Virus record (IMG/VR): IMGVR_UViG_2925919700_000005
Span: 1-38,422 of that record
DNA length: 38,422 nucleotides
Source of the DNA: a virus
Taxonomy: Duplodnaviria > Heunggongvirae > Uroviricota > Caudoviricetes
Strand: one strand, 5' to 3'
The translations under genes were made by a program, and so were the position numbers. This document shows, piece by piece, positions 1,852-24,853 of this stretch. A model generated the notes under the pieces. It ran no database searches and had not been told where the DNA came from. It worked only from the letters and a program-made list of their open reading frames with translations. Each line of letters opens with the position of its first letter. The first letter of the stretch is position 1.

Positions 1852-1877
1852 GGGACTCTTCGGAGTCCCTTTTTTTA
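1852..1877 (+). terminator. Rho-independent terminator (UUCG-loop hairpin + T7)
   Basis: GGGACTC-TTCG-GAGTCCC followed by TTTTTTT; abuts the 3' end of the leftward gene 1875..2816. Confidence 0.7.
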
Positions 1878-2816
1878 TTGGCAGTAAGAAAAGTTAGTAC
1901 CGTACATTTCATCATGAAGCATTGCAGCATTGCGTTTCTGTTCTTCTTCCTCATCTTCTACATCACTAGAAAAATGAGATTTGCCCTTAAAAGAACGAAG
2001 TAATTGCAGTGCAGCCATCGGATCACGCATCACATCGATTTTCAATTCTACTTCATCATTTGCGGCCTCATCAGCCGCGTTTTCAACTACTGCTACCGGA
2101 GCAACTTCTTTAGCTTTCAGTTCTTCAATCTCAGATTTCTGTGCTTCGATAATCTGGTCTTTTTCTTCCAGTGCAGCTTTCAGTTCTGCGATCTGTGCTT
2201 CCAGTGCAGCAAAGCGATCTTCAACAACCGGAGAAACAGCATTCACCTGTGCTTCCAGTTCCAGAAATGCTTCGCAAGATTCAATACGTTCTTTCTCTTC
2301 ACCTTCATAAGCAACCAGTTCTACAACTTCTTTTTCGGTAGCGTGGCTGTTAAAGAATACAGCAAAGTAAGGATTGCCAGATTTAGTGAAGTTCAGTTTA
2401 GCTTTTCCGGTAACTTCTTTACGACGACCGAAGGTGATCTGGCAATCAGCGGTATCCTGAAAATCCATGTTAGGAGCGGAAACGATAGCAGTATCACCAG
2501 CAATAACCAGGTGGAACAGTTCAGAAGAGTTCTTAACGGTAAAAGTAACGATGTGGTCTACTGCAACGTCTTTAGCAGGTTTAACGCGGTCGATTGCTTT
2601 ACGAATGCCGTTAGGCAGTTTACCGTCAACACCAAAGCCAGCCGCGATCAGTGCTTCACGATGTGCTTTAAAGCCAGCGAAAGCGGATTTCTGCTGTGCA
2701 AAGGAAACATGAGCAACAACTTTCGGCTGAATCTTCTTGTTTGCTTCTGTGCCAAATTTGATAACTGCTTTAGCGTTGGTTACTTCGTTAGTGAAAAAGT
2801 TAGCGGAAAATAACAT
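1875..2816 (-). CDS. hypothetical protein (313 aa) with central coiled coil and acidic C-terminal region
   Basis: Long ORF with strong AGGAG SD 9 nt upstream of the ATG; heptad-like segment EAQIAELKAALEEKDQIIEAQKSEIEELKAKE; plus-strand ORFs inside it are treated as shadows. Confidence 0.7.
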   Translation of the reverse strand: MLFSANFFTNEVTNAKAVIKFGTEANKKIQPKVVAHVSFAQQKSAFAGFKAHREALIAAGFGVDGKLPNGIRKAIDRVKPAKDVAVDHIVTFTVKNSSELFHLVIAGDTAIVSAPNMDFQDTADCQITFGRRKEVTGKAKLNFTKSGNPYFAVFFNSHATEKEVVELVAYEGEEKERIESCEAFLELEAQVNAVSPVVEDRFAALEAQIAELKAALEEKDQIIEAQKSEIEELKAKEVAPVAVVENAADEAANDEVELKIDVMRDPMAALQLLRSFKGKSHFSSDVEDEEEEQKRNAAMLHDEMYGTNFSYCQ

Positions 2817-2859
2817 TATAAATACTCCTGTGGAAAGTTAGTTTTAATTGTTCATTTCA

Positions 2860-2899
2860 AGCCTCCTTTGCTGCAACAAGGGAGGCTTTTTCTTTTTTA
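2860..2899 (+). terminator. GC hairpin with T-run between two leftward genes (plus-sense terminator or mRNA structure)
   Basis: AGCCTCC ... GGAGGCT followed by TTTTTCTTTTTT. Confidence 0.4.
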
Positions 2900-2928
2900 A
2901 AGCCATCATATAATTCTCAGTCAAAGTA

Positions 2929-3111
2929 TTAGTAAACCTCTGCGGTTATCTTTACTTTAATGTCATACTTCTTTAAGAGTTTGTGGAAGGTTGATTGATC
3001 AATACCTTCACCTTTAAACCATTCACCCATCACTACATCAGGTGTCAGTTCAAAATAACGCTTTGCCATTTCTAAAACGATTTCACGAGTGAACTTAACA
3101 GGTCGTGCCAT
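2929..3111 (-). CDS. small hypothetical protein (60 aa)
   Basis: AGGAGG SD immediately upstream (minus strand); ATATAAATAATAGTGAG box ~55 nt upstream. Confidence 0.55.
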   Translation of the reverse strand: MARPVKFTREIVLEMAKRYFELTPDVVMGEWFKGEGIDQSTFHKLLKKYDIKVKITAEVY

Positions 3112-3246
3112 CTTGAATCCTCCTAAATCTGGATTAATGATTTCTTAAAAAAGAGCGTTAACCGCTCACTATTATTTATATGGGGATTGTATTTTATTTT
3201 TCAACCCCTCACACTTATCTCTTATATATGTATTTATAACAGAGAT

Positions 3247-3403
3247 ATGTTAAAATGTTATTCAGATGTTATCAGACGTGTTAAATGTGTTAAACCGCAG
3301 CACGAATTGCTAAAGCGGAGAGCACGAATTAACCAAATTGATGTATATTCAATCAATTTAGCAAAAAGGCATAGCACTTTTTGCTAAAGCGGTGAGCATT
3401 AAT
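3247..3403. repeat. Phased TGTTA repeats plus two ~24-bp direct repeats (TTGCTAAAGCGG(A/T)GAGCA...)
   Basis: TGTTA recurs five times at ~9-12 bp spacing (3248-3293); TTGCTAAAGCGGAGAGCACGAATT (3307-3330) and TTGCTAAAGCGGTGAGCATTAATT (3380-3403). Confidence 0.6.
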
Positions 3404-3630
3404 TGAGCTATGAATTGTAAAGATTTGTTACAAGATTTTCTCTCAGATCCAAATCTTCACAGGCATATAACAATTTAACACGGTGATAACAATAGGAAGG
3501 AAAATCGGTAAATTTTCACTTTCAATACAAATATTATAACATATTTATCTCGAATTTTCAAGTATACCACCGATCCTACACAGTGTCAACAAAGGATTTT
3601 CAAACCTACACTAGCCCTACACTATGAAAA

Positions 3631-3870
3631 TTGCCCCTGAATTTTGCCCCTGAACCAAAATCCCCTAGATTTCACTATCCCATTTTTGCCCCTGAAACCT
3701 ACTATTTTTGCCCCTGAAATTCTGGGAAACAGTGATTTTGCCCCTCATTTTTGCCCCTGAAATGCCAATAATTGCCCCTGAAAATCTAATTTTTGCCCCT
3801 GAAATTTGCCCCAGAAAAGGATTGGTGAGAAAAACTCTTTATAAAACATTAACTTAGCGAGGGGCAAAAG
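3631..3870. repeat. Iteron-like array of ~9 direct copies of TTTTGCCCCTGAA with one inverted copy
   Basis: Copies at ~3631, 3642, 3683, 3705, 3736 (variant CTCA), 3748, 3772, 3790, 3805 (variant CCAGAA); inverted copy GAGGGGCAAAAG at 3859-3870; spacers are 10-30 bp and irregular. Confidence 0.8.
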
Positions 3871-4012
3871 CGGGGGATCGGGTGTGCATAGATATTATAT
3901 AACACATTCGCTACGCTCATGTGTAAAACCAAAAACAACAAATAACCAAAAAGATATTAGGAGGGCGTAGCCCGACTGCGCGAAGCGCTAACCAATTACT
4001 TCTAGTAACACT

Positions 4013-4240
4013 AATTTAAACTAGATGATACTAGATGGTCTTAGAAGGAATTAACTAGTTTGCTCGCTCGCTTCGCTCACTCTCAAACGTCTGCGACGCC
4101 ACTGCGTGGCATCGAGAATCACTTCTGAAAGGATTTTCTTGAAAGGGATTTTAAACTAGTTACTAACTGATTCTAGAAAGATAGTAATAATCACTTTGAA
4201 GATAATAGTAGTTAACTGGTTACTAGATGATTCTAGATCA
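4013..4240. repeat. Three copies of a ~17-25 bp ACTAGATGAT(A/T)CTAGA-type direct repeat flanking a GC-rich structured core
   Basis: ACTAGATGATACTAGATGG (4020-4038), AACTAGTTACTAACTGATTCTAGAAAG (~4153-4180), AACTGGTTACTAGATGATTCTAGATCA (~4212-4238); GC-rich inverted repeats in 3961-4110. Confidence 0.6.
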
Positions 4241-4266
4241 CTTTAATGATCATGAAAGGTATTGGT

Positions 4267-4296
4267 TATCCCTTCGGGATTGCAACCTTCGGTTGC
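4267..4296 (+). other. Two tandem UUCG-tetraloop hairpins
   Basis: ATCCC-TTCG-GGAT and GCAACC-TTCG-GTTGC back to back. Confidence 0.5.
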
Positions 4297-4500
4297 TAAA
4301 TTGCTTCCGGATTATTATTTCTCCAAAAGAAAGATTCTTATATTCTAAAGATACTTCTTCGTTTTGATGATGATTTAATCAAAATCTATGAAGGAGGCGA
4401 AGCCGACTGAATACCAATTCCTTTCAAATTAGACAAAAATTTCTCGTTATAAATAATAGTGAACTTACTTTGATTCACTTTCTTTTAGAGGATTTCCACT

Positions 4501-4953
4501 ATGATCAATACTAAAACTCCTTTCATTCTTCTGGGTCTGAACCATGATGATAATCTGGCTATGATGCATGTTTTCGCTAATCGTGGTTATAACATCATTC
4601 GTCATTCCGAAGACTCCAATTTCTCAACTGCTTTCTATGCTCTTAAACGTAATGGTCGCCCTACGGTGATCGTAGACTGCTTTACTGATGAAGGTCGTGA
4701 ACAATACAACAACATTCCGGCAATTATTGTTCGTGATGACCTGCCGTTTGATGTTCGTGAATATGACGTTGATTTAGGCTCTTACTATGGGATCGCCGAT
4801 CTTGACCAGATTATGGCTGATTATGGTAAACAACCCGCTCAGGAAGCCCCAGAACACGATGAACAAGACGAAGATGACGACGACTACACACCAATCTGTT
4901 TCTCTTCTCACGGTGGCTTCTACGGTTACGATGAAGGCTTAGATATGCTGTAA
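4501..4953 (+). CDS. hypothetical acidic protein (150 aa); N-terminal pattern faintly resembles a receiver/flavodoxin-like fold
   Basis: GAGGA SD; CGTTATAAATAATAGTGA box 40 nt upstream; C-terminal run EHDEQDEDDDDY; alternating hydrophobic strands FILLG / YNIIRH / VIVDC / PAIIV. Confidence 0.6.
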   Translation: MINTKTPFILLGLNHDDNLAMMHVFANRGYNIIRHSEDSNFSTAFYALKRNGRPTVIVDCFTDEGREQYNNIPAIIVRDDLPFDVREYDVDLGSYYGIADLDQIMADYGKQPAQEAPEHDEQDEDDDDYTPICFSSHGGFYGYDEGLDML

Positions 4954-7373: not shown

Positions 7374-7458
7374 ACAACCCCCTTTAATTAATACCCGTAT
7401 TTATCAAAATATCAACAATTTAATAAATACCTTCATATTTCGTAATGAGGGTAATTAC

Positions 7459-9363
7459 ATGAAACTGATTTCAAATAAGGCAAAATTAAAAAAGATTCTT
7501 AAAAATATCTCTGCGGCAATTCGCCCACCTAAAACGATGAAACCTAGCGAATGGGTAGAGGCTAATGTAGTTGCAACCGATGGTGTTAAAGCCGGATCGC
7601 TAATTAAATTGCATCCCTTCCAACGTGGAATGATGGACGCGATCACCGAAGACCGTAGAAAAATTGTGTTTAAATGTTCGGCACAGTTGGGTAAGACCAT
7701 GATTCTTAACGGAATTATCTTCCATCGGATCGCGAGTAACCCTACTAATATTGGGGTGTTGCAAAGTAACGTTAGAGAACTAAATTCTTGGATCGCTGGT
7801 AAGGTGAAGCCAGTATTAGAGGCAACGCCAGAATTAAAGGCGATGATCACCGACAAATCAGACCGTAATGCCGTTAACAACTCATCGATTATTCAGCTTC
7901 GTAACGGATCATTCATGTATTTCATGTCGCTGAACAGTCCATCACACTTGCGCGGTAAAACACTCCCTTTGATTATTCTTGATGAAGTTGATGCGGCTGA
8001 TGAGTCAGACGAAGGGAACCCGATCCAGCTAGCGGAACAACGCGCAACCACTTTCGGGGAAGATGCAAGGATCGTAATTGCTTCCACTCCAACCGCTCGT
8101 GATGGGGCGATTAACCAACAATGGGAACTCTCGGATAAGAGAAAATATCATGTCGTTTGCCAGCATTGCGGACACAAGCACGTAATGGAATGGAGTAACG
8201 TACATTTCGATTGGCATACGATTAACGGTAAATCATTACCCAACCCAGATACAGCCGTTTACCGTTGCCCTGAATGTGAAACCGACTGGACCGAAGGGGA
8301 TCGCCTACGTGCTGTTGCTCAGGGAGAATGGGTCGCCACCGAACCAAACGCGGAAGTAATCGGTTTTCATGCTAACCGCCTTATGTCTCCGTTTAGTTCT
8401 ATCCGTGCGTGTGTGGTGGACTTTGCTGATAGCTACGCGAATATGTCGCTGGCAACGTTCTATAATGTGGTGCTCGGTGAAACCTTCGATGATCTTAACG
8501 AAGACCGCACAGCCGACGAATTAGAAACGCTGAAAACTGATATTAGCCTAGACAATATTCCTGATGATGTACTGGCTCTGGTTGGTGGAGTTGACCAGCA
8601 AAAAGACCGTCTGGAATCTACCTTGCTGGGTATTTCTCGTAAAGGGCTATGCGTAGTTGATCACCGATCATTCTATGATGTGAACTGCGAACGCCACGAA
8701 TCACCAGCATATAACCAGCTTTACAACTTCCTGAAAGCGAAATTCTATACCCGATCCGGTCAACGAATCCCGATGTTATCTGCTTTCGTGGACTCATCGA
8801 ACGGACGAGCTACAAACGTGATCTATCGATTCTGCACACAATGGCAAAACCTAACAGCCATTAAAGGGGCAAGCAATGTTGATGCTCCAATCCTTCCGGT
8901 CAAGGACACAAGAACGGGTGGTTTTACTCTTAAAATTCTGGGCGTAAACAACCTTAAGACGATGATCCGTGAAATGATTAACCGGAACTTGAGAGACAGC
9001 GATCCTCATACGGTCTTCCAGATTGGTGACGTTCCTGATGACTATTGCGAGCAATTGTTATCTGAACAGTTGAAACGGCAGGGTAATACCACACGTTGGG
9101 TAAAAGTTGGTCAGCAACGAAACGAGGCTCTCGACTGCCTGGCTTACTCCTATGCTGCTTCTCGCCATGTACTCAATAAAATGTCATGGGAAAAACTCGA
9201 AGCCATCAAAGATAGTTTGAACCGTGAACCAGAAGAACCCGTAGAAGCTCCTAAATCGCAATCTAACGAGCAAATAGAAGAAACTAAGCCAATCACACGA
9301 CCGCAACGTCAAAACATCGCCAGACGTCCAAATAGAGGCCGTAGCTGGGTAACATCGTTCTAA
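7459..9363 (+). CDS. terminase large subunit (lambda gpA-like ATPase/nuclease)
   Basis: Walker A CSAQLGKT and Walker B LPLIILDEVD; Cys/His cluster CQHCGH...CPEC; 634 aa, immediately upstream of the portal gene. Confidence 0.9.
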   Translation: MKLISNKAKLKKILKNISAAIRPPKTMKPSEWVEANVVATDGVKAGSLIKLHPFQRGMMDAITEDRRKIVFKCSAQLGKTMILNGIIFHRIASNPTNIGVLQSNVRELNSWIAGKVKPVLEATPELKAMITDKSDRNAVNNSSIIQLRNGSFMYFMSLNSPSHLRGKTLPLIILDEVDAADESDEGNPIQLAEQRATTFGEDARIVIASTPTARDGAINQQWELSDKRKYHVVCQHCGHKHVMEWSNVHFDWHTINGKSLPNPDTAVYRCPECETDWTEGDRLRAVAQGEWVATEPNAEVIGFHANRLMSPFSSIRACVVDFADSYANMSLATFYNVVLGETFDDLNEDRTADELETLKTDISLDNIPDDVLALVGGVDQQKDRLESTLLGISRKGLCVVDHRSFYDVNCERHESPAYNQLYNFLKAKFYTRSGQRIPMLSAFVDSSNGRATNVIYRFCTQWQNLTAIKGASNVDAPILPVKDTRTGGFTLKILGVNNLKTMIREMINRNLRDSDPHTVFQIGDVPDDYCEQLLSEQLKRQGNTTRWVKVGQQRNEALDCLAYSYAASRHVLNKMSWEKLEAIKDSLNREPEEPVEAPKSQSNEQIEETKPITRPQRQNIARRPNRGRSWVTSF

Positions 9364-15317: not shown

Positions 15318-18300
15318 ATGCAGTCGATCCAATTTAAACGAACAAATGTTTCTGGCAAAAAACCAACGCCGGAACAATTACAGGTCGGTGAGGTGGCAAT
15401 CAACCTTAAAGACCATGTTATTTTTACCAAAGACCGAGATCATGAAGTAGTTCAAATCTCTGTTTCTCCTGAAACTCACGCGGCACTAGAATCTAAAGTT
15501 GATGCTAACAAACAAGAATTGGATAGCACAATTGCAGTAAATGACCGCAATATTCACGCTAAAGTAGATGAAATTAAACAAACTACTGATTCTACTATCG
15601 CAGCAAATCACGCAGAAATTAACAATAAAGTTGATGTAATTAAACGCGAAACCGACGCGACAATCGAGGCCAATAAAAATAAAGCTGCTTCCGATCTTGC
15701 TGGTGTTAAAGCTGAATTGTCGGATACTATCAACGCTAATAAAAATGCGGCTGCTGTAGCAACTCAGGAACTGGACACCCGCATCAATAAAAAAGTTGAT
15801 GATATTAAATCCCGTACTGATGCAACCATCGCAAGCAATCACAAAGCAATCAATGACAAGGTTGATTTGATTAAGGCAGAAACTGACCGCACTATCGCAG
15901 CAAATCAAGCCTATGCGGAAAATCAGTTAACTGACACCTACAATAACCTTACTGGTGTGATTGCAGCTAATAAGCAAGAGGCAGCGGATAGCGTCGCAGC
16001 ATTAACCCGTGATGTTGAAGCCAAAAATTCAGCAATTCATAGCAAAGTTGACAATAACAAGTCTTACACTGATTCTGAACTTGCACGTTTAGAAAGCCGT
16101 ATTGATGCAGCCGATGGATCTGCTGATGGCAAGTACATCAAAAAACACGTAAACACTTATACTGATGGTTATTTGCTGTCTAAGACCGCAAACTATTTTG
16201 ATGATCCAAATGCGCGTAATCTTAATTACTTTGGTGCATTCCGCATGAATGACCTGGCGGGTCATATTGCAATGATCTTGCATGTTCCGCATCCATCTGG
16301 TGTTAATCATGCTCGTGGCTTTGAGTTCACTTATGGGTCTAATCCGGTTCATACGGTAAGAACATACGGCTATGATGAATTGGGTCATTTGGCATATTCT
16401 CACCGCATGTATCATGAAGGTGATAAACCTACTCCTGCCGAAATTGGCGCATATTCGAAAGCAGAAATTGACCGACTGTTCCAGAAGACGCTTAATTTTG
16501 GGATCGAGGGTGGTTGGTTTAAACTAGGCACTTTGACAATGCCACAGCAACACGGTCGTAGTGCTAAGATCCGCTTAGTTGGTGGTAACGGTTATAACGT
16601 CGGGATGAATGGACAAGCCAATATTATCGAATTGGTGATTCGATGCGGCAACAATAGCCCGAAAGGTGTTGTATTCAATGCGTATTATACTATTTGGCAT
16701 TATGAACAACATTTTTGCGCTATTCCAACCGATGGCGACAATTACGATCTTTACGCTTACTACGGTGCACATACAGGATTTGTTTTAGCAGAATATCAAG
16801 TTTCTTCCGGTGGTGTTTCTTTAAACCTGTTGGATACTCCTGAATATCTGGGTGGTGAAAAACCTGTTGCAGATGAAATTTTTGATGCTCTTAACATTTC
16901 ATCGTTCACTAACTTTAGCAACCGTGGAACGTTAAATTTTGCGGGAAACCATCAAGGCCAATATGACATTGAGCATTTGAACGAACAACAAACTAACAGC
17001 AAAAAGATGTTGCGTCGCTTCCGTAGTTCTGCTCCTGCCACTATCTGGCATGAGACAGTTGATGATAACGCATATCGTCTTGCTACTGGATACGAAGATA
17101 CAAATCAGGAATTATTGCTGACAGCAACAACCGGGTTACATGTCAAGAGATTAACATTGGATGGTGGTGCTGCTGGTGGAAATGCTGGTATTGATATTCG
17201 TCGAGGACCAAACGAATCAAGCCATTTTAATTTTATGGATTATCGAACTGGTCAAGATGTTCGTAATGGCTGGTTTGGTTTTGGTGATTTGACGACCAAA
17301 GATTTTATTTGGTGGAACGATAACGGTCAAAACTCGATAAACTTGATCGAAAACGGTGAATTGCATATTACTGGCGGTAAAGGCCAGAAAATTGTAATGA
17401 ATAGCGAAGTTGCATTATCTGAAAATGCTCGTTTGGCTGTTAAAGGTGGCAATTATGGCTTAATTTTTAGAAATGATGGTACTGGTTTCCATATACTGAC
17501 TACCGATTTAAAAGATTCTTTTGGAAATTGGAATAATCGTAGACCATTCAGCTATAATTTTGATGATGGTGGACTATATTTAGGTGGCACTGAAACTGCT
17601 CGTTGTTTGCATCTGGGAATTGATGGTAGCACCCGTCTTGAGGAGAACTTAGTTTTCAGGGCGGGATCTCGTCAATCAATGGACTATATTGAAATGATCC
17701 ATTGGGGTAACAGTAATACCGCTCGTGACAACGTTTTGAGTATGAAAGACTCGAAAGGATTCCTTGCTGAATTTGAACGCGTGGGTGGGACTAACGGCGT
17801 TAAAACCAGATTCTTTGGTGAAACCTTCACTGACGGTACATTATACCTAAATCAGATGAATAATAGCTCTGAACGATTCTCTATCAACAATTGGGGAAAT
17901 TCAGAAGTTGGACGCGCGGCAGTAATGGAAATCGGTGATTCCAAAGGTTATCACTTCTATACTGAACGCAGGACAGATAACAGTTTGGCGTTTGATGTTG
18001 CTGGCGCTTTTACTGTGCATGGACCTAACGGAATAACCATCAAAAACTCAACTGGTGCACGCCATATCTGGTTTAGAGATGATAGCGATGCAGAAAAGGC
18101 TGTTATCTGGGCTACAGATGAGGGTATTTTACATATACGAAATAATCATGGGGGTTCATTTAGTCATCACTTCCAGGGTGCAATGATTAAAGCGGGAGAG
18201 CAAGTTCCTTATAATAGTGAATACGCTCTTATCCGTGGTGAGGTTTCTGGTGGTGCATGGGATGACTGGCGCAACCGTCCTGCTGGTATTCTCTTAGATT

Positions 18301-18839
18301 GTCAGGATTCACATACCCAAGCATATTCAATTTGGAAAGCAACTCATTGGGGTGTTGATCATCTTGCGGCAATGGGTGTTCATGCTGGCGGTGGTCAAGC
18401 TACCGTAATGATGCATATGAACAAAGGCGGCTGGTATTCATGGTCTGCAAATGGTGATTTCACATCTAGTGCGTCGGTTTACTGTAACGATGTTTATATT
18501 CGTTCCGACCGTCGTCTGAAAATTAACGTTGAAGACTACGAAGAAAATGCGGTAGATAAGGTAAATAAACTAAAAGTTAAAACCTACGATAAAGTTAAGT
18601 CTCTTTCTGACCGCGAAGTCATCGCACATGAGATTGGTATTATCGCACAGGATTTACAAGAAATTTTACCGGAAGCTGTTAGCACTTCTAATGTCGGATC
18701 TCTTGATAACCCAGAAGAGATTTTAACAATTTCTAACTCTGCTGTGAACGCGCTTTTAATTAAAGCGGTCCAAGAAATGAGCGAAGAAAATAAACTTCTT
18801 CGTGAACGTCTTGCTGCAATTGAAGCTAAATTAGGGTAA
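15318..18839 (+). CDS. long tail fibre with C-terminal S74 intramolecular chaperone (autoproteolytic) domain
   Basis: N-terminal ~250 aa of ~22-residue repeats (KVDxIKxxTDxTIAANxxxIN); C-terminal YIRSDRRLKINVEDYE...LLIKAVQEMSEENKLLRERLAAIEAKLG is the S74 signature with a predicted cleavage at S|D. Confidence 0.85.
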   Translation: MQSIQFKRTNVSGKKPTPEQLQVGEVAINLKDHVIFTKDRDHEVVQISVSPETHAALESKVDANKQELDSTIAVNDRNIHAKVDEIKQTTDSTIAANHAEINNKVDVIKRETDATIEANKNKAASDLAGVKAELSDTINANKNAAAVATQELDTRINKKVDDIKSRTDATIASNHKAINDKVDLIKAETDRTIAANQAYAENQLTDTYNNLTGVIAANKQEAADSVAALTRDVEAKNSAIHSKVDNNKSYTDSELARLESRIDAADGSADGKYIKKHVNTYTDGYLLSKTANYFDDPNARNLNYFGAFRMNDLAGHIAMILHVPHPSGVNHARGFEFTYGSNPVHTVRTYGYDELGHLAYSHRMYHEGDKPTPAEIGAYSKAEIDRLFQKTLNFGIEGGWFKLGTLTMPQQHGRSAKIRLVGGNGYNVGMNGQANIIELVIRCGNNSPKGVVFNAYYTIWHYEQHFCAIPTDGDNYDLYAYYGAHTGFVLAEYQVSSGGVSLNLLDTPEYLGGEKPVADEIFDALNISSFTNFSNRGTLNFAGNHQGQYDIEHLNEQQTNSKKMLRRFRSSAPATIWHETVDDNAYRLATGYEDTNQELLLTATTGLHVKRLTLDGGAAGGNAGIDIRRGPNESSHFNFMDYRTGQDVRNGWFGFGDLTTKDFIWWNDNGQNSINLIENGELHITGGKGQKIVMNSEVALSENARLAVKGGNYGLIFRNDGTGFHILTTDLKDSFGNWNNRRPFSYNFDDGGLYLGGTETARCLHLGIDGSTRLEENLVFRAGSRQSMDYIEMIHWGNSNTARDNVLSMKDSKGFLAEFERVGGTNGVKTRFFGETFTDGTLYLNQMNNSSERFSINNWGNSEVGRAAVMEIGDSKGYHFYTERRTDNSLAFDVAGAFTVHGPNGITIKNSTGARHIWFRDDSDAEKAVIWATDEGILHIRNNHGGSFSHHFQGAMIKAGEQVPYNSEYALIRGEVSGGAWDDWRNRPAGILLDCQDSHTQAYSIWKATHWGVDHLAAMGVHAGGGQATVMMHMNKGGWYSWSANGDFTSSASVYCNDVYIRSDRRLKINVEDYEENAVDKVNKLKVKTYDKVKSLSDREVIAHEIGIIAQDLQEILPEAVSTSNVGSLDNPEEILTISNSAVNALLIKAVQEMSEENKLLRERLAAIEAKLG

Positions 18840-18877
18840 TTGGAAAGCGGGGAGAAATCTCCGCTAAGGATTCTTAT

Positions 18878-19174
18878 ATGGGATATTGGGTAAGTAGTGA
18901 AATTAATACTAAAATCGATGCTTTAAAATGGCATGTGTTTGATATTCCTAATGGATATGTTCCCGGACGTGCTGGTGTTGCCGTTTTGCGGCATACCGCT
19001 CGTGATGGTTGGGGCGATATGCATATTTTCGTTGACGGTGTGGTCGCCGCGCGTCGTCGTGGTGGTGGGGATTGGGGATTTACGGTTAATGCGTTTGTTC
19101 CTGCTGGATGTACTGTCACCTTTGGTCATGGGGGTGTCGGTGGTATTGAATACTTTAAATTTATGGAGTTTTAA
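18878..19174 (+). CDS. glycine-rich small protein, paralog 1 of 3 (98 aa)
   Basis: TAAGGA SD; shares M-x-x-W-V, W[FH]xIPNG[WY], GGGD and a basic aromatic C-terminus with the next two ORFs. Confidence 0.65.
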   Translation: MGYWVSSEINTKIDALKWHVFDIPNGYVPGRAGVAVLRHTARDGWGDMHIFVDGVVAARRRGGGDWGFTVNAFVPAGCTVTFGHGGVGGIEYFKFMEF

Positions 19175-19176
19175 TT

Positions 19177-19482
19177 ATGGCTGGATGGGTTGCTGGAAGA
19201 ATGGCTAATGCCATTAGCATTTATGCTAATGGCGGCTGGTTTGGTATCCCTAATGGTTGGGTGGCGGATTCATGCGGTATTGTGTCTGTTCATGCCGAAG
19301 CCGTTGGTGGCGGTGGTGACCTGGACGCAGAATTATATGTAAACGGTACTCTCGAATCAGGTCATCACGCTGGTAATGCAGGAAGTTGGGGAGCAAGTTC
19401 TTTAGTTGGTGCTGGCGCTACTGTCAGTTTTAGTATTGGTAAAGGAAGTTTAAACCACTTCCAATTTAGGAGAATGCAATAA
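19177..19482 (+). CDS. glycine-rich small protein, paralog 2 of 3 (101 aa)
   Basis: Starts 2 nt after the paralog-1 stop; GIPNGWVADSCGIVSVHAEAVGGGGD. Confidence 0.65.
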   Translation: MAGWVAGRMANAISIYANGGWFGIPNGWVADSCGIVSVHAEAVGGGGDLDAELYVNGTLESGHHAGNAGSWGASSLVGAGATVSFSIGKGSLNHFQFRRMQ

Positions 19483-19784
19483 TGGCATTTTGGGTAGATG
19501 GTGCTTTAGGTAATAGAGCAGGTAAAGCGAATCAAGGATGGTTTGATATTCCTAACGGTTGGACACCTGACGCTTTCGGCACGGTTTCATTTGGTGCTCA
19601 TTCTTCTGGTGGTGGCGGTGGTGACTCAGAATTGCTTTTGCATGGCTTTTGTGTGTCTGGAAGTCATAAGGGTCATGATTGGGGACAGATCCATTCTTGT
19701 ATTGTGCCGCAAGGGGCGGTAATTACCGTTAGCACAAATAGGGGGGTCGCTCATCTTCGTTATAGACGTTTGAGCAACCGCTAA
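19482..19784 (+). CDS. glycine-rich small protein, paralog 3 of 3 (100 aa)
   Basis: ATG overlaps the paralog-2 stop (TAATG); DIPNGWTPDAFGTVSFGAHSSGGGGGD. Confidence 0.65.
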   Translation: MAFWVDGALGNRAGKANQGWFDIPNGWTPDAFGTVSFGAHSSGGGGGDSELLLHGFCVSGSHKGHDWGQIHSCIVPQGAVITVSTNRGVAHLRYRRLSNR

Positions 19785-19838
19785 ATAAATAGAATTACGG
19801 GTATGTGCCCTATTGTTTAAAATAGAAGGAAAAGAATA

Positions 19839-20615: not shown

Positions 20616-21944
20616 CTGAGAGATCCCCTCATAATTTCCCCAAAACGTAACCATGTGTGAATAGATTTTGAGTAAGCAGGGTTGCAGCCACGAGTGAGTC
20701 TTCCCTTGTTATTGTGTAGCCAGAATGCCGCAAAACTTCCATGCCTAAGCGAACTGTTGAGAGTACGTTTCGATTTCTGACTGTGTTAGCCTGGAAGTGC
20801 TTGTCCCAACCTTGTTTCTGAGCATGAACGCCCGCAAGCCAACATGTTAGTTGAAGCATCAGGGCGATTAGCAGCATGATATCAAAACGCTCTGAGCTGC
20901 TCGTTCGGCTATGGCGTAGGCCTAGTCCGTAGGCAGGACTTTTCAAGTCTCGGAAGGTTTCTTCAATCTGCATTCGCTTCGAATAGATATTAACAAGTTG
21001 TTTGGGTGTTCGAATTTCAACAGGTAAGTTAGTTGCTAGAATCCATGGCTCCTTTGCCGACGCTGAGTAGATTTTAGGTGACGGGTGGTGACAATGAGTC
21101 CGTGTCGAGCGCTGATTTTTTCGGCCTTTAGAGCGAGATTTATACAATAGAATTTGGCATGAGATTGGATTGCTTTTAGTCAGCCTCTTATAGCCTAAAG
21201 TCTTTGAGTGACTAGATGACATATCATGTAAGTTGCTGATAGGTTTCCAGTTTTCCGCTCCTAGGTCTGCATATTGTACTTTTCCTCTTACTCGACTTAA
21301 CCAGTACCAACCCAGCTTCTCAACGGATTTATACCATGGCACTTTAAAGCCAGCATCACTGACAATGAGCGGTGTGGTGTTACTCGGTAGAATGCTCGCA
21401 AGGTCGGCTAGAAATTGGTCATGAGCTTTCTTTGAACATTGCTCTGAAAGCGGGAACGCTTTCTCATAAAGAGTAACAGAACGACCGTGTAGTGCGACTG
21501 AAGCTCGCAATACCATAAGCCGTTTTTGCTCACGGATATCAGACCAGTCAACAAGTACAATGGGCATCGTATTGCCCGAACAGATAAAGCTAGCATGCCA
21601 ACGGTATACAGCGAGTCGCTCTTTGTGGAGGTGACGATTACCTAACAATCGGTCGATTCGTTTGATGTTATGTTTTGTTCTCGCTTTGGTTGGCAGGTTA
21701 CGGCCAAGTTCGGTAAGAGTGAGAGTTTTACAGTCAAGTAAGGCGTGGCAAGCCAACGTTAAGCTGTTGAGTCGTTTTAAGTGTAATTCGGGGCAGAATT
21801 GGTAAAGAGAGTCGTGTAAAATATCGAGTTCGCACATTTTGTTGTCTGATTATTGATTTTTGGCGAAACCATTTGATCATATGACAAGATGTGTATCTAC
21901 CTTAACTTAATGATTTTGATAAAAATCATTAGGGGATTCATCAG
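20616..21944 (-). mobile_element. IS10 insertion sequence, complete (1329 bp)
   Basis: Ends CTGAGAGATCCCCTCATAATTTCCCC (inside end, 20616) and ...AAAATCATTAGGGGATTCATCAG (outside end, 21944); length 1329 bp; encodes the 402-aa IS10 transposase. Confidence 0.97.
20629..21837 (-). CDS. IS10 transposase
   Basis: 402-aa translation MCELDILHDSLYQFCPELHLKRL...HGYVLGKL matches the IS10/Tn10 transposase as I recall it; start is 107 bp inside the outside end. Confidence 0.97.
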   Translation of the reverse strand: MCELDILHDSLYQFCPELHLKRLNSLTLACHALLDCKTLTLTELGRNLPTKARTKHNIKRIDRLLGNRHLHKERLAVYRWHASFICSGNTMPIVLVDWSDIREQKRLMVLRASVALHGRSVTLYEKAFPLSEQCSKKAHDQFLADLASILPSNTTPLIVSDAGFKVPWYKSVEKLGWYWLSRVRGKVQYADLGAENWKPISNLHDMSSSHSKTLGYKRLTKSNPISCQILLYKSRSKGRKNQRSTRTHCHHPSPKIYSASAKEPWILATNLPVEIRTPKQLVNIYSKRMQIEETFRDLKSPAYGLGLRHSRTSSSERFDIMLLIALMLQLTCWLAGVHAQKQGWDKHFQANTVRNRNVLSTVRLGMEVLRHSGYTITREDSLVAATLLTQNLFTHGYVLGKL

Positions 21945-22423: not shown

Positions 22424-24853
22424 ATGACAAGACATATAGTAACAATAGAAGGGGATAATAAAGGTCTAAGGAGAAGTACCAATGAAGCCGCCGACCTTCT
22501 CGATAGTTTGTCTGAAAAGGCAAGTAATATTGATTTTGGTGGTGGCTTATCTGGTCTGACTGGGTCTCTTCGTGGGATCGCTGGCTCTGCTGGTTTGGCT
22601 GCTGGTGGTATCGGCTTAGTTGCGACCGCAGTGGTTGCAGCCGCTAAAGCTGGCGCGGAATACGTTAAACAGTATTCAGAAGTATCTAAGGCGACCGGAC
22701 TCTCGATTGAATCCCTTCAAAGACTGGAAAAGGAATTTTCTGGCACTGGCTTAACAGTTGAAAAATTTGGCGATATCAACAAAGACACCTTAGATAAGAT
22801 GGGTGATGCGTGGGCTAACGGTGGTGGTATTGCTGATGACTTAGAATCGGTTGGCCTTAAGTTAGAAAACTATGCTCACTTCATGACAGATCCGCAAGGT
22901 GGTATGAAAGCGGCGATCCAAGTGTTCTATGACATGAAGAAAGCCGGAAAATCAATGGCTGAAATCAAGTTCATGATGGAATCTTTAGCCAGTGATTCAA
23001 GCCATATGACCAGCCAGCTTGAGAAATATAATAGTGCTCAAGAGGCGATGATCGCTATTCAGAATCAATCTGTTAACGTCACCGAAGAAAACGCTAAAAA
23101 ATATGATAAATTTTCTCAGAATATTAATAAGCTGGAAAATAACCTGAAAGGTGTCGGCATGACCATTACTGGTCCTTTGGTTGATAGCTTAAACTGGTTA
23201 TTTGACTGGTTTAATATTGATTGGGAAAAGAGTTCTCTATTCAGGGCATTAGACCGACTGAATAAAGAAGGCAAGACCGCAACTGGCGGTATTCTTAACG
23301 CCAACCATAAAGACGCTCAAAAAATTATTGACAAGTACAATAAAGAAAAGCGTTGGAATAATCTGGCAGATTGGGAAAAGGCCGCGATCCGTGGTGCTGG
23401 TGTCGATCCTCGTACTGCTGGCTTTGATGTAGAAGCATATAAGAAACGTTTTGGTAATTCTTATAAGAAAAATGGCTCTCTGATTGTAGTCGATAACGGG
23501 GAACATCTAACCCGCAAGGCAGATCCTAACCGTGATTTGACTATCCCAACTACACCAACTCGACCAGCTTCATTGGGTAAGTCTGGCAACGAGAAGAAAG
23601 CCGAGGAAGAAGCCAAAAAGAAAGCGGAAGAGGCAGCTAAAAAGGCTAAGGAAGCCGCAGAAAAAGCACAGAAAGAACGTGAGGATGCAATCAAGCGTCT
23701 GAATGCACTTGATGTTAAATTGCAAGGGCAAGTCGCCGCGTCTATTGCTTCTCAAAACAAGCAATTAGAATCCAGTTTGAAAGATTTGGACACTGCTTTA
23801 GATCTGGGCTTAATCTCTCAGCAAGACGCAGCCGCGAAACGCCAATCCTTAATCGATCAGAATACTGAAAACGTATACAAAATGGTTTTAGGTGCTGATC
23901 CGGTTGATGCTTTGAATGCCTTAACACAATTGCAACAAATAAGGGACAACGAGCTAGAAAGCCATAAACGGTTACTTGATGGTAAAGCTATCTCCTACGA
24001 AGAATATATGCGTCGTGTGAACGATACCGAGCAAAACTATTCTCAGATTGAAAATTCTTTACAGGGAATGGATGGTTTTAAAACCAATCAGTTGACCAAT
24101 AGCTTAGACTATCAGGATTCAAATAACCCGTTTGCTAAATTTAATGCAATCGATAAAGAGAAATCGGAAGCGGAACAAGATTATAAAACCGATAAACTCA
24201 AGATTGACGGTATTAATGATCCGGCTAAACGGATGGAAGCATTAGAAAAACTCAATGAAAACCATCAAAAACGAATGGCTGCAATTGAGAAGAAATATGC
24301 TGATGCTCGACAGTCAATAGCCGATGATATGTATGGCGGTTTTGCTGCTGCAATGACTCTCTTCGGGCAGGAAAACACTAAAGCTATGCAGATGGCTTTC
24401 ACTGCTCATAAAGCATTCTCCATTGGACAAGCGACGGTGAACATGTGGACGGCTGCTACCGATGCATGGAACGATCCAACCAACGTAACCACAGGTCAAA
24501 AAATCGCTGCTGCTGCATTGGCTGTTTCTCAGAACATGGGGAGCATCGCAAACATCAAGTCTACTAACGTTAGCGGTATGGCTCATGATGGTATTGATAA
24601 CATCCCTCGTGAGGGTACATGGCTGCTTGATAAGGGTGAACGAGTAGTTGATCAGCGTACTAACGGTGATTTGAAAGACTTCTTATCTGCTCAAAAATCA
24701 GGCGGTGGTAACTCTCAGCCGATTGAAGTTAACGCACCTTTGAACATTAACGGCAACGTTAATAGCTCAGACAAGATGGTCATGGATGCTATCAAACGTC
24801 ATGCTAAGTTAGTTGCTCAGGCGGTAGAAGACGCACAGCGCCGTAAGATGTAA
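22424..24853 (+). CDS. tape measure protein
   Basis: 809 aa, directly downstream of the tube and chaperone genes; N-terminal Gly/Ala-rich hydrophobic segments and long K/E-rich helical regions; AAAGGGGTAATTT-ATG. Confidence 0.8.
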   Translation: MTRHIVTIEGDNKGLRRSTNEAADLLDSLSEKASNIDFGGGLSGLTGSLRGIAGSAGLAAGGIGLVATAVVAAAKAGAEYVKQYSEVSKATGLSIESLQRLEKEFSGTGLTVEKFGDINKDTLDKMGDAWANGGGIADDLESVGLKLENYAHFMTDPQGGMKAAIQVFYDMKKAGKSMAEIKFMMESLASDSSHMTSQLEKYNSAQEAMIAIQNQSVNVTEENAKKYDKFSQNINKLENNLKGVGMTITGPLVDSLNWLFDWFNIDWEKSSLFRALDRLNKEGKTATGGILNANHKDAQKIIDKYNKEKRWNNLADWEKAAIRGAGVDPRTAGFDVEAYKKRFGNSYKKNGSLIVVDNGEHLTRKADPNRDLTIPTTPTRPASLGKSGNEKKAEEEAKKKAEEAAKKAKEAAEKAQKEREDAIKRLNALDVKLQGQVAASIASQNKQLESSLKDLDTALDLGLISQQDAAAKRQSLIDQNTENVYKMVLGADPVDALNALTQLQQIRDNELESHKRLLDGKAISYEEYMRRVNDTEQNYSQIENSLQGMDGFKTNQLTNSLDYQDSNNPFAKFNAIDKEKSEAEQDYKTDKLKIDGINDPAKRMEALEKLNENHQKRMAAIEKKYADARQSIADDMYGGFAAAMTLFGQENTKAMQMAFTAHKAFSIGQATVNMWTAATDAWNDPTNVTTGQKIAAAALAVSQNMGSIANIKSTNVSGMAHDGIDNIPREGTWLLDKGERVVDQRTNGDLKDFLSAQKSGGGNSQPIEVNAPLNINGNVNSSDKMVMDAIKRHAKLVAQAVEDAQRRKM

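Follow-up and report, generated by a model that had tools for sequence, protein, structure and literature searches.

An invariant, bipartite array of TGTTA boxes in an exchangeable non-coding cassette of an Escherichia coli prophage, with the host regulator ArcA as candidate reader

What reads the short TGTTA repeats in the gene-free control region of an E. coli prophage, and what would be controlled through them? The stretch of DNA analyzed here (the window, 38,422 nucleotides) corresponds to about one complete 38-kb prophage. The same prophage, 98% identical over positions 2800 to 4600, is inserted in ycdX in ETEC1703, and the truncated ycdX halves flank it just outside window positions 1 and 38422. 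Its gene content includes portal, capsid, tape-measure, and tail genes, a T-even-like long tail fibre, IS10, and a large serine integrase; neither a CI-type repressor nor a classical replication initiator was recognized among the prophage genes. Members of the family use the large serine integrase and occupy ycdX, hicB, or codB (window ends and loci L002 and L060-L063). The small and large terminase genes lie 6 kb apart, with the control region in between. Over 15318-19800, the gene for the long tail fibre and the small genes that follow it match lytic T-even-like Straboviridae at 84 to 96% DNA identity, which indicates a recent exchange of a host-range module between temperate and lytic phages. 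The IS10 copy (20626-21944) lies among the tail genes and shares 98.7% identity with a deposited record of IS10 transposase; in relatives, IS2 or IS3 elements are found at positions other than that of the IS10 in the window.

The boxes lie in a gene-free stretch of 1.39 kb (3112-4500) within which no RefSeq relative has an annotated gene; the region is 30 to 38% G+C. A homologous control region (2800-4600) is present in 56 of 5426 complete E. coli genomes, and additional relatives were taken from IMG/VR and metagenomes. Searches of phage and plasmid collections for near and distant relatives gave no DNA homologue of the control region, save for a stretch of ∼80 nt (4310-4392) that shares 76 to 81% identity with intergenic, unannotated DNA in lytic phages of the RB49-like group (Krischvirus), in which the counterpart occurs at one to three places per genome. 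Two adjacent TTCG-loop hairpins, CCCTTCGGG and GCAACCTTCGGTTGC, precede this stretch, the whole spanning 4269-4392. Several copies of CTAG-rich repeats, ACTAGATGATTCTAGA and AACTAGTTACTAACTGATTCTAGA, are found at 4019-4237, upstream of ORF150, where they may be a further set of operators. Both edges of the gene-free region (3166-3180 and 4448-4462) carry TATAAATAATAGTGA, a perfect 15-nt inverted repeat, each copy ∼40 to 55 nt upstream of the first gene on its own side; it may be a promoter or operator element common to the divergent operons. The features discussed below are collected in Table 1.

Table 1. Coordinates of features in the window; promoters, the terminator, and marbox-like sites are predictions
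Feature	Position	Strand	Remarks
Small terminase subunit gene (terS)	653-1222
Leftward operon	1875..3111	-	ORF60 (2929-3111) and ORF313 (1875-2816)
ORF60	2929-3111	-	Left border of gene-free stretch
Terminator-like hairpin GAGCGGTTAACGCTC, then TTTTTT	3153..3167	-	In leader, just upstream of ORF60 ribosome-binding site
Left array, five direct 10-bp elements with TGTTA core	3247..3296	+
Left elements 1 to 3	3247-3256, 3255-3264, 3266-3275	+	ATGTTAAAAT, ATGTTATTCA, ATGTTATCAG
Left elements 4 and 5	3278-3287, 3287-3296	+	GTGTTAAATG, GTGTTAAACC
Promoter-like TTAACA-18-TAACAT	3255..3284	-	Made of boxes 4 and 2; 9/12 consensus matches; inferred start ∼3248
Second version, TTAACA-16-TAACAT	3293-3266	-	Consensus prediction
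Duplicated element copy 1, marbox-like 20-mer GCAGCACGAATTGCTAAAGC	3297..3316	+	Core GCACGAATTGCTAAA; exact core consensus match
Perfect 12-bp inverted repeat TTTAGCAAAAAG / CTTTTTGCTAAA	3357-3368 / 3377-3388		8-nt loop; right arm in copy 2
Duplicated element copy 2, marbox-like 20-mer ATAGCACTTTTTGCTAAAGC	3371..3390	+	One mismatch to AYnGCACnnWnnRYYAAAY
Ninth, isolated box TTGTTACAAG, between arrays	3425..3434	+	Core at 3426
Right array, three inverted elements TTGTTATCAC, GTGTTAAATT, TTGTTATATG	3464..3492	-	Spacings 11 and 8 bp
Sigma-70 promoter-like TTGAAA-17-TATAAT	3561-3533	-	11/12 matches
Sigma-70 promoter-like TTGACA-17-TATACT	3589-3561	-	11/12 matches
Iteron array, 7 to 9 TTTTGCCCCTGAA iterons	3629..3817	+	Separate exchangeable module, 140 bp from boxes
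ORF150	4501-4953	+	Right border of gene-free stretch
Large terminase subunit gene, gpA-type (lambda)	7459-9363

The initial annotation had described five recurring TGTTA pentamers, and these are real: on the plus strand, the pentamer starts at 3248, 3256, 3267, 3279, and 3288 (span 3248-3292). Five same-strand copies in 45 bp are the maximum for the window; the maximum in 600 first-order Markov simulations of 38 kb was three, and chance clustering, which never reached five, was rejected. The boxes had been placed at intervals of ∼9 to 12 bp, which is correct for the intervals of 9, 11, and 12 bp but not for the first, which is 8 bp. Their proposed position on roughly one face of the helix holds, since at 10.5 bp per turn every box lies within 0.24 turn of the face of box 2. 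An inverted set, absent from the initial annotation, completes the layout: TAACA at 3468, 3476, and 3487 (last base 3491) forms an imperfect inverted copy of left boxes 3 to 5, spacers included. The arrangement is bipartite, five boxes plus three inverted ones, the two clusters being about 176 to 200 bp apart in opposed orientation. In IMG/VR, more than 120 environmental contigs were matched by a pattern of four TGTTA boxes spaced at 11 bp.

Conservation of the arrays was examined in 21 distinct array-carrying relatives. None of 40 box positions varies, compared with 13 of 42 spacer positions (Fisher p = 8e-5), and no indel is present in either cluster, so that the spacing is fixed. In the right array, the cores are invariant while the spacer at 3481-3485 varies in up to 9 of the 21 relatives; the ninth box, which like the 12-bp inverted repeat of Table 1 is not in the initial annotation, is likewise invariant (alignment columns 187-191). 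Invariant pentamers at fixed spacing, separated by variable spacers, are the hallmark of a factor that recognizes both the pentamer sequence and its register, and purifying selection acts specifically on the eight to nine boxes. The open reading frame at 3187-3387, which overlaps the left array, had been judged non-genic, and comparative alignment bears this out: the frame, which opens with TTG, is shortened by frameshifts to 3 to 32 codons in 6 of the 21 relatives, and no RefSeq relative has a CDS annotated there. A protein-coding reading was rejected. We conclude that the boxes make up a genuine bipartite operator array, which is under selection and sits in an exchangeable non-coding cassette; that this array is bound by a protein is, on the strength of this pattern, likely.

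The exchangeable character of the cassette is apparent from a comparison of 54 loci, the window counted, in which the segment between ORF60 and the iterons takes two mutually exclusive forms. In type A (22 loci, the window among them), TGTTA occurs six times on the plus strand and CTG-N10-CAG is absent; type B (32 loci) lacks the TGTTA arrays and instead has LexA-like palindromes whose positions are fixed, at 113, 198, and 216 from the ORF60 start. CTG-N10-CAG is the consensus of the LexA (SOS) box (PMC8072944). The type B boxes score 8.3 to 20.9 bits, against 13.3 to 27.6 bits for the known SOS boxes from which the same matrix was built. The CTG and CAG ends of boxes 1 and 2 are invariant, box 3 is degenerate in some loci, and the centres vary. 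Examples from L012, L015, L025-L033, and others, ∼113 to 235 nt from the ORF60 start, are CACTGTATGTTTAGCCAGTG and TGCTGTATGAATTAACAGTG. The presence of these boxes suggests direct SOS control in type B, in a phage without an evident CI repressor; no promoter under their control was identified in the type B locus inspected. In the gene-free region of the window, no LexA-box match reaches 10 bits. The type of cassette shows no dependence on the alleles of ORF60, ORF313, terS, ORF150, ORF110, Rha, ORF77, and ORF200, nor on iteron type. One type A and one type B prophage that share the hicB site are collinear, with matched blocks mostly 90 to 98% identical. Type A is represented in 26 genomes; strain H2 (NZ_CP028733.1) has a type B leader, and its prophage is otherwise collinear with that of E275a.

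The cassette lies in an untranslated leader, with strong predicted leftward promoters on one side and the ORF60-ORF313 operon on the other. The tandem sigma-70-like sites at 3533..3589, which are consensus predictions, point leftward through the box cassette; the TTGACA-17-TATACT site is also found in a type B locus, and type B has an equivalent of the terminator-like hairpin. The right cluster falls at about +35 to +58 from the inferred start of the nearest strong promoter and does not overlie that promoter. ORF60 is read as a helix-turn-helix-like protein; it has no match in Pfam, PHROGs, or PDB, and its relatives are absent from species-representative genomes. ORF313 gave only chance-level matches in Pfam, PHROGs, and PDB. 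It has 396 homologues, and among the 120 matches listed all are hypothetical proteins, nearly all from E. coli; its AlphaFold model (pLDDT 45.6) is too poor for use. In the family loci compared (L007-L059), each iteron type (GCCCCTGAA, CCTACAC, or TCCCCG) goes without exception with its own type of protein encoded downstream of ORF60; the three types of protein, of about 313 to 341 amino acids, are unrelated, and that of the window is ORF313. Such perfect co-variation implies that the leftward operon encodes an iteron-binding protein, presumably a replication initiator or a master regulator, and the cassette upstream of it would therefore be well placed to gate the lytic programme.

Could the reader of the boxes be encoded by the phage itself? 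A DNA-binding protein that coats the direct repeats and represses or switches early promoters might be of the ribbon-helix-helix or winged-helix kind (Cox/Apl/Xis or ParR type), or might be ORF60, ORF77, ORF200, or Rha. Proteins such as P2 Cox, 186 Apl, and R1 ParR (at parC) typically work on arrays of short repeats phased at ∼10 bp; the 8-bp spacings fit small ribbon-helix-helix dimers better than they fit ArcA, the host regulator considered below, genes read as helix-turn-helix flank the region, and box-specific conservation is compatible with any protein. No gene co-varies with the cassette, however. ORF60 is 98% identical in L012, a type B locus in which the boxes are absent; ORF200 is at least 91% identical in both types wherever it was matched (no match was obtained in L015, L016, and L026); and the alleles of Rha, ORF77, and ORF150 assort freely. 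The whole type A and type B prophages that were compared show no A-specific gene, bar an extra ORF beside the endolysin gene of the type A prophage, which the window lacks, and no credible small ORF was found within the cassette. We therefore consider a phage-encoded reader unlikely. A host factor explains the boxes most economically, given that the alternative cassette would be read by a host protein, LexA, and that no phage gene follows the TGTTA cassette; we favor this explanation with moderate confidence on the basis of these comparisons, and the regulator is probably not phage-encoded.

Explanations in which the boxes are something other than operators fare less well. The initial annotation had linked the repeats to cooperative protein binding or DNA bending beside promoters or origins; cooperative binding and bending are presumed properties, and promoter-like sites are indeed adjacent. 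A role as accessory to a replication origin, in which the boxes would serve the adjacent iterons as an unwinding element, as bent DNA, or as a landing pad for a host factor, would agree with the G+C content of the region, with the 140 bp that separate it from the seven to nine iterons, and with the short A-tracts that the boxes carry about one turn apart; ArcA-P is also reported to bind oriC. The cassette nevertheless reassorts independently of the iterons and of the iteron-linked gene, a LexA-box cassette replaces it in sister phages, and selection falls on exact pentamers, not on AT-richness; an origin function is accordingly improbable. As origin iterons or accessory repeats, the boxes were rejected, because the TGTTA cassette occurs with either iteron/protein type, whereas the true iterons co-vary with the gene. 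A structured leader or small RNA, in which the inverted clusters pair and close a 175-nt domain with internal hairpins, might be expected from the folding energies, which beat those of shuffled sequences on both strands (z = -7.1 and -6.5), and from the strong predicted promoters that read the region leftward toward a terminator-like hairpin. These z-scores arise because the region is full of inverted repeats, however, and the clusters are complementary because the same motif is present in both orientations. When covariation was counted in 18 sequences for the long-range box-to-box helix and four local hairpins, 1 cell in 973 was compensatory, no better than in shuffled or slid controls, and variable helix positions mostly break pairs (for example, unpaired in 10/18 and 12-13/18 sequences). 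An Rfam search at a permissive threshold gave only chance-level matches. RNA structure was rejected as the reason for the conservation, and we regard this reading as very improbable. A packaging site like P1 pac or lambda cosB, with boxes for the small terminase subunit flanking the cleavage site, is brought to mind by the lambda gpA-type large terminase, by the small subunit encoded nearby, and by the bipartite 5 + 3 layout, which is analogous to the 4 + 3 hexamers of P1 pac. Yet terS is 96% identical in the type B loci L015 and L016, which lack the boxes, and the collinear A/B pair is ∼93% identical across the block that includes terL. A cos or pac site was rejected on these grounds and has the slightest likelihood of the readings considered.

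Which host factor, then, might read the TGTTA boxes? ArcA reports the redox state of the quinone pool and hence oxygen, and its phosphorylated form, ArcA-P, is the best candidate, a tentative assignment. DeoR, GntR, PhoP, OmpR, CpxR, TorR, IHF, CRP, FNR, and TyrR were dropped for a mismatch in motif or in its symmetry. The ArcA-P element consists of 10-bp direct repeats, ATGTTAAAAA-1-ATGTTAAAAA, with an 11-bp centre-to-centre distance and TGTTA as the most conserved part; sites have two to five repeats, most chromosomal ones three to five (PMC4173790; PMC3798270). Spacings of 9, 10, 12, and 22 bp and opposite-strand copies are also documented (Park et al. Table S4; PMC3798270). We rebuilt an ArcA repeat matrix from the 66 two-repeat sites of Park 2013 Table S4 (training median 7.8 bits) and an 18-bp ArcA-box matrix from 115 real boxes (Table S3), which themselves score 9.6 to 21.5 bits. 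All eight array boxes fit the direct-repeat element at 6.6 to 12.0 bits: left boxes 1 to 5 score 12.0, 7.5, 7.0, 8.5, and 6.6 bits, and the right boxes score 7.5, 9.6, and 8.4 bits. The ninth box scores 9.7 bits. Each cluster has one canonical 11-bp pair, 3256/3267 on the left (3255-3272, plus strand; 13.5 bits with the 18-bp matrix) and 3491/3480 on the right (3475-3492, minus strand; 14.7 bits). Boxes 2 to 5 lie at 0, 11, 23, and 32 bp, and the 12- and 9-bp spacings are among those documented for ArcA. Two pairs of boxes are 8 bp apart; no such spacing is documented for ArcA, and two winged-helix monomers would probably not fit at that distance. The ArcA matrix is rich in A+T and carries little information, and single 18-bp matches that score equally are found inside genes of the window, e.g., 17.9 bits at 23921; five or more matches in 55 bp occurred in ∼1% of mononucleotide shuffles of the AT-rich region. 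Both the ArcA and the marbox resemblances were noticed first and tested afterwards, which leaves some post-hoc bias. A narrow, keyword-based look at review literature mentioning ArcA found no ArcA-controlled prophage switch. A weaker minus-strand cluster of ArcA-matrix matches with degenerate cores (TTGTTGATATTTTGATAA, 14.9 bits) lies at 7400-7460, between ORF200 and the large terminase gene.

The second repeat in the region, TTGCTAAAGCGG(A/T)GAGCA, is present twice as had been described (3308-3325 and 3382-3399), with 17 of 18 nt identical. The duplication extends to 32 nt at 81% identity (3299-3330 and 3373-3404); what had been called a 24-bp element is genuinely duplicated but is better described as two marbox-like sites, one of which is kept throughout the family. 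The consensus of the mar/sox/rob box is given as AYnGCACnnWnnRYYAAAY or gcannwwntgnnaaa (PMC3709825; PMC12052159), and the full 20-mers of both copies have one to two mismatches to it. The exact core GCACnnWnnRYYAAA occurs in the 38-kb window only at 3300-3314 and 3374-3388, where 0.42 to 0.65 occurrences are expected. The core of copy 1 is invariant in 54 of 54 loci, types A and B alike, with variation confined to unspecified positions and flanks; copy 2 is found in type A only. Class I marboxes lie in reverse orientation at -56 to -85 (PMC3709825; PMC12052159). Copy 1, which is also reversed, lies inside that range, at 58.5 bp upstream of the start inferred for the box-made promoter, the start itself being a prediction. 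Copy 2 was matched to no predicted promoter, and its geometry is neither class I nor class II (forward, over the -35). Many sequences satisfy the highly degenerate marbox consensus; loosely defined, it gives 17,730 candidate sites in E. coli (PMC12052159). Because of this degeneracy, and because copy 2 fits no predicted promoter, the marbox reading is a lead only, and the assignment of the duplicated element to MarA/SoxS/Rob is doubtful. The right arm of the 12-bp inverted repeat falls within copy 2. Its perfection depends on a 1-bp insertion at 3362 (the extra base in TTTAGCAAAAAGG) that is missing from 20 of 21 relatives, so the perfect hairpin is peculiar to the copy in the window; the repeat shows no compensatory upkeep, the foot of its stem being unpaired in 12 of 18 sequences.

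Taken with the predicted promoters, the ArcA reading leads to a possible, as yet tentative, model in which a cassette on the leader of the leftward early operon is a host-read operator with ArcA-P as its reader. Dimers of ArcA-P would bind cooperatively along one face of the helix and would cover the box-made promoter-like hexamers (TTAACA-18-TAACAT) from about -44 to +1 relative to the predicted start, which is the usual geometry of repression. The two clusters could be bridged by ArcA-P, which would also hinder transcription entering from the upstream promoters. The early-left operon would be shut at low oxygen and released upon dephosphorylation of ArcA, and the marbox-like site of the duplicated element could allow activation by MarA/SoxS/Rob. 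More broadly, an exchangeable non-coding "sensor cassette" may place the early-left, iteron-linked operon of the prophage family directly under host regulators, with the LexA allele for DNA damage, the ArcA allele, an unusually strong array, for respiratory or redox state, and the common marbox for oxidative or antibiotic stress; this generalization is speculative.

The usual account of prophage induction invokes a repressor of the phage that is tied to the SOS response. Should the model be correct, host transcription factors would directly govern a common prophage of gut E. coli, and an exchange of ∼400 bp of non-coding DNA would set which host signal, DNA damage or oxygen/redox, wakes each sister prophage. 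Such a prophage would be a concrete and readily testable case of SOS-independent, environment-specific induction at the transition from gut to outside, and the two types would offer a natural pair of otherwise near-isogenic phages for comparison. Even if the binder is not ArcA, the box-specific conservation defines an eight-site operator. The natural swap between LexA and TGTTA cassettes is the most interesting aspect of the locus and is directly testable.

Several known systems share parts of this design. Two clusters of short repeats flank a central segment in R1 parC (5 + 5 repeats) and P1 pac (4 + 3), as they do here; unlike at those sites, no partition genes were recognized, there is no co-variation with terminase, and the repeat spacing is irregular. 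Class I marbox promoters are resembled in the match to AYnGCACnnWnnRYYAAAY and in the reverse orientation of copy 1 ∼58 bp upstream of the predicted start, but here the start is a prediction, copy 2 lacks a matching promoter, and the consensus is degenerate. The ArcA-P sites of E. coli (icdA, astC, cydA, appY, and gcvA) have the same 10-bp element with a TGTTA core in direct repeats of ∼11 bp (PMC3798270; PMC4173790), and they share with the prophage array the range of two to five repeats, occasional spacings of 9 to 12 bp, opposite-strand repeats, and overlap with promoter hexamers, the last of which is predicted here. Unlike the chromosomal sites, every prophage repeat has a perfect core, and the five left boxes sum to ∼42 bits with our own matrix, against Table S4 values of 24 to 33 for three chromosomal five-repeat sites. 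The prophage sites, which are candidates, differ further in having two 8-bp pairs, a second, inverted cluster, and a location in a prophage leader. The PY promoter of plasmid R1 has an ArcA site, TGTTAAGTAAATGTTAA, of the form TGTTAA-N5-TGTTAA, through which a mobile element reads host ArcA (PMC7303359). This F-like plasmid thus resembles the prophage as a mobile element with TGTTA-type ArcA repeats, binding in the prophage being predicted, but the R1 site has only two repeats, at -76 to -60, compared with the prophage arrays. At PY, moreover, ArcA acts with TraJ to counter silencing by H-NS, whereas in the prophage it would presumably be a repressor. LexA boxes control early or antirepressor promoters in the prophages 186 (tum), CTXphi, and GIL01. 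Like these phages and like its own type B sisters, the prophage would have boxes for a host repressor in the phage control region; it shows no evident CI-type repressor, and within this one phage family the LexA-like boxes of type B occupy the same slot as the TGTTA array. Where type A departs from the LexA systems is in the motif and in the signal that it implies, which would be redox instead of DNA damage.
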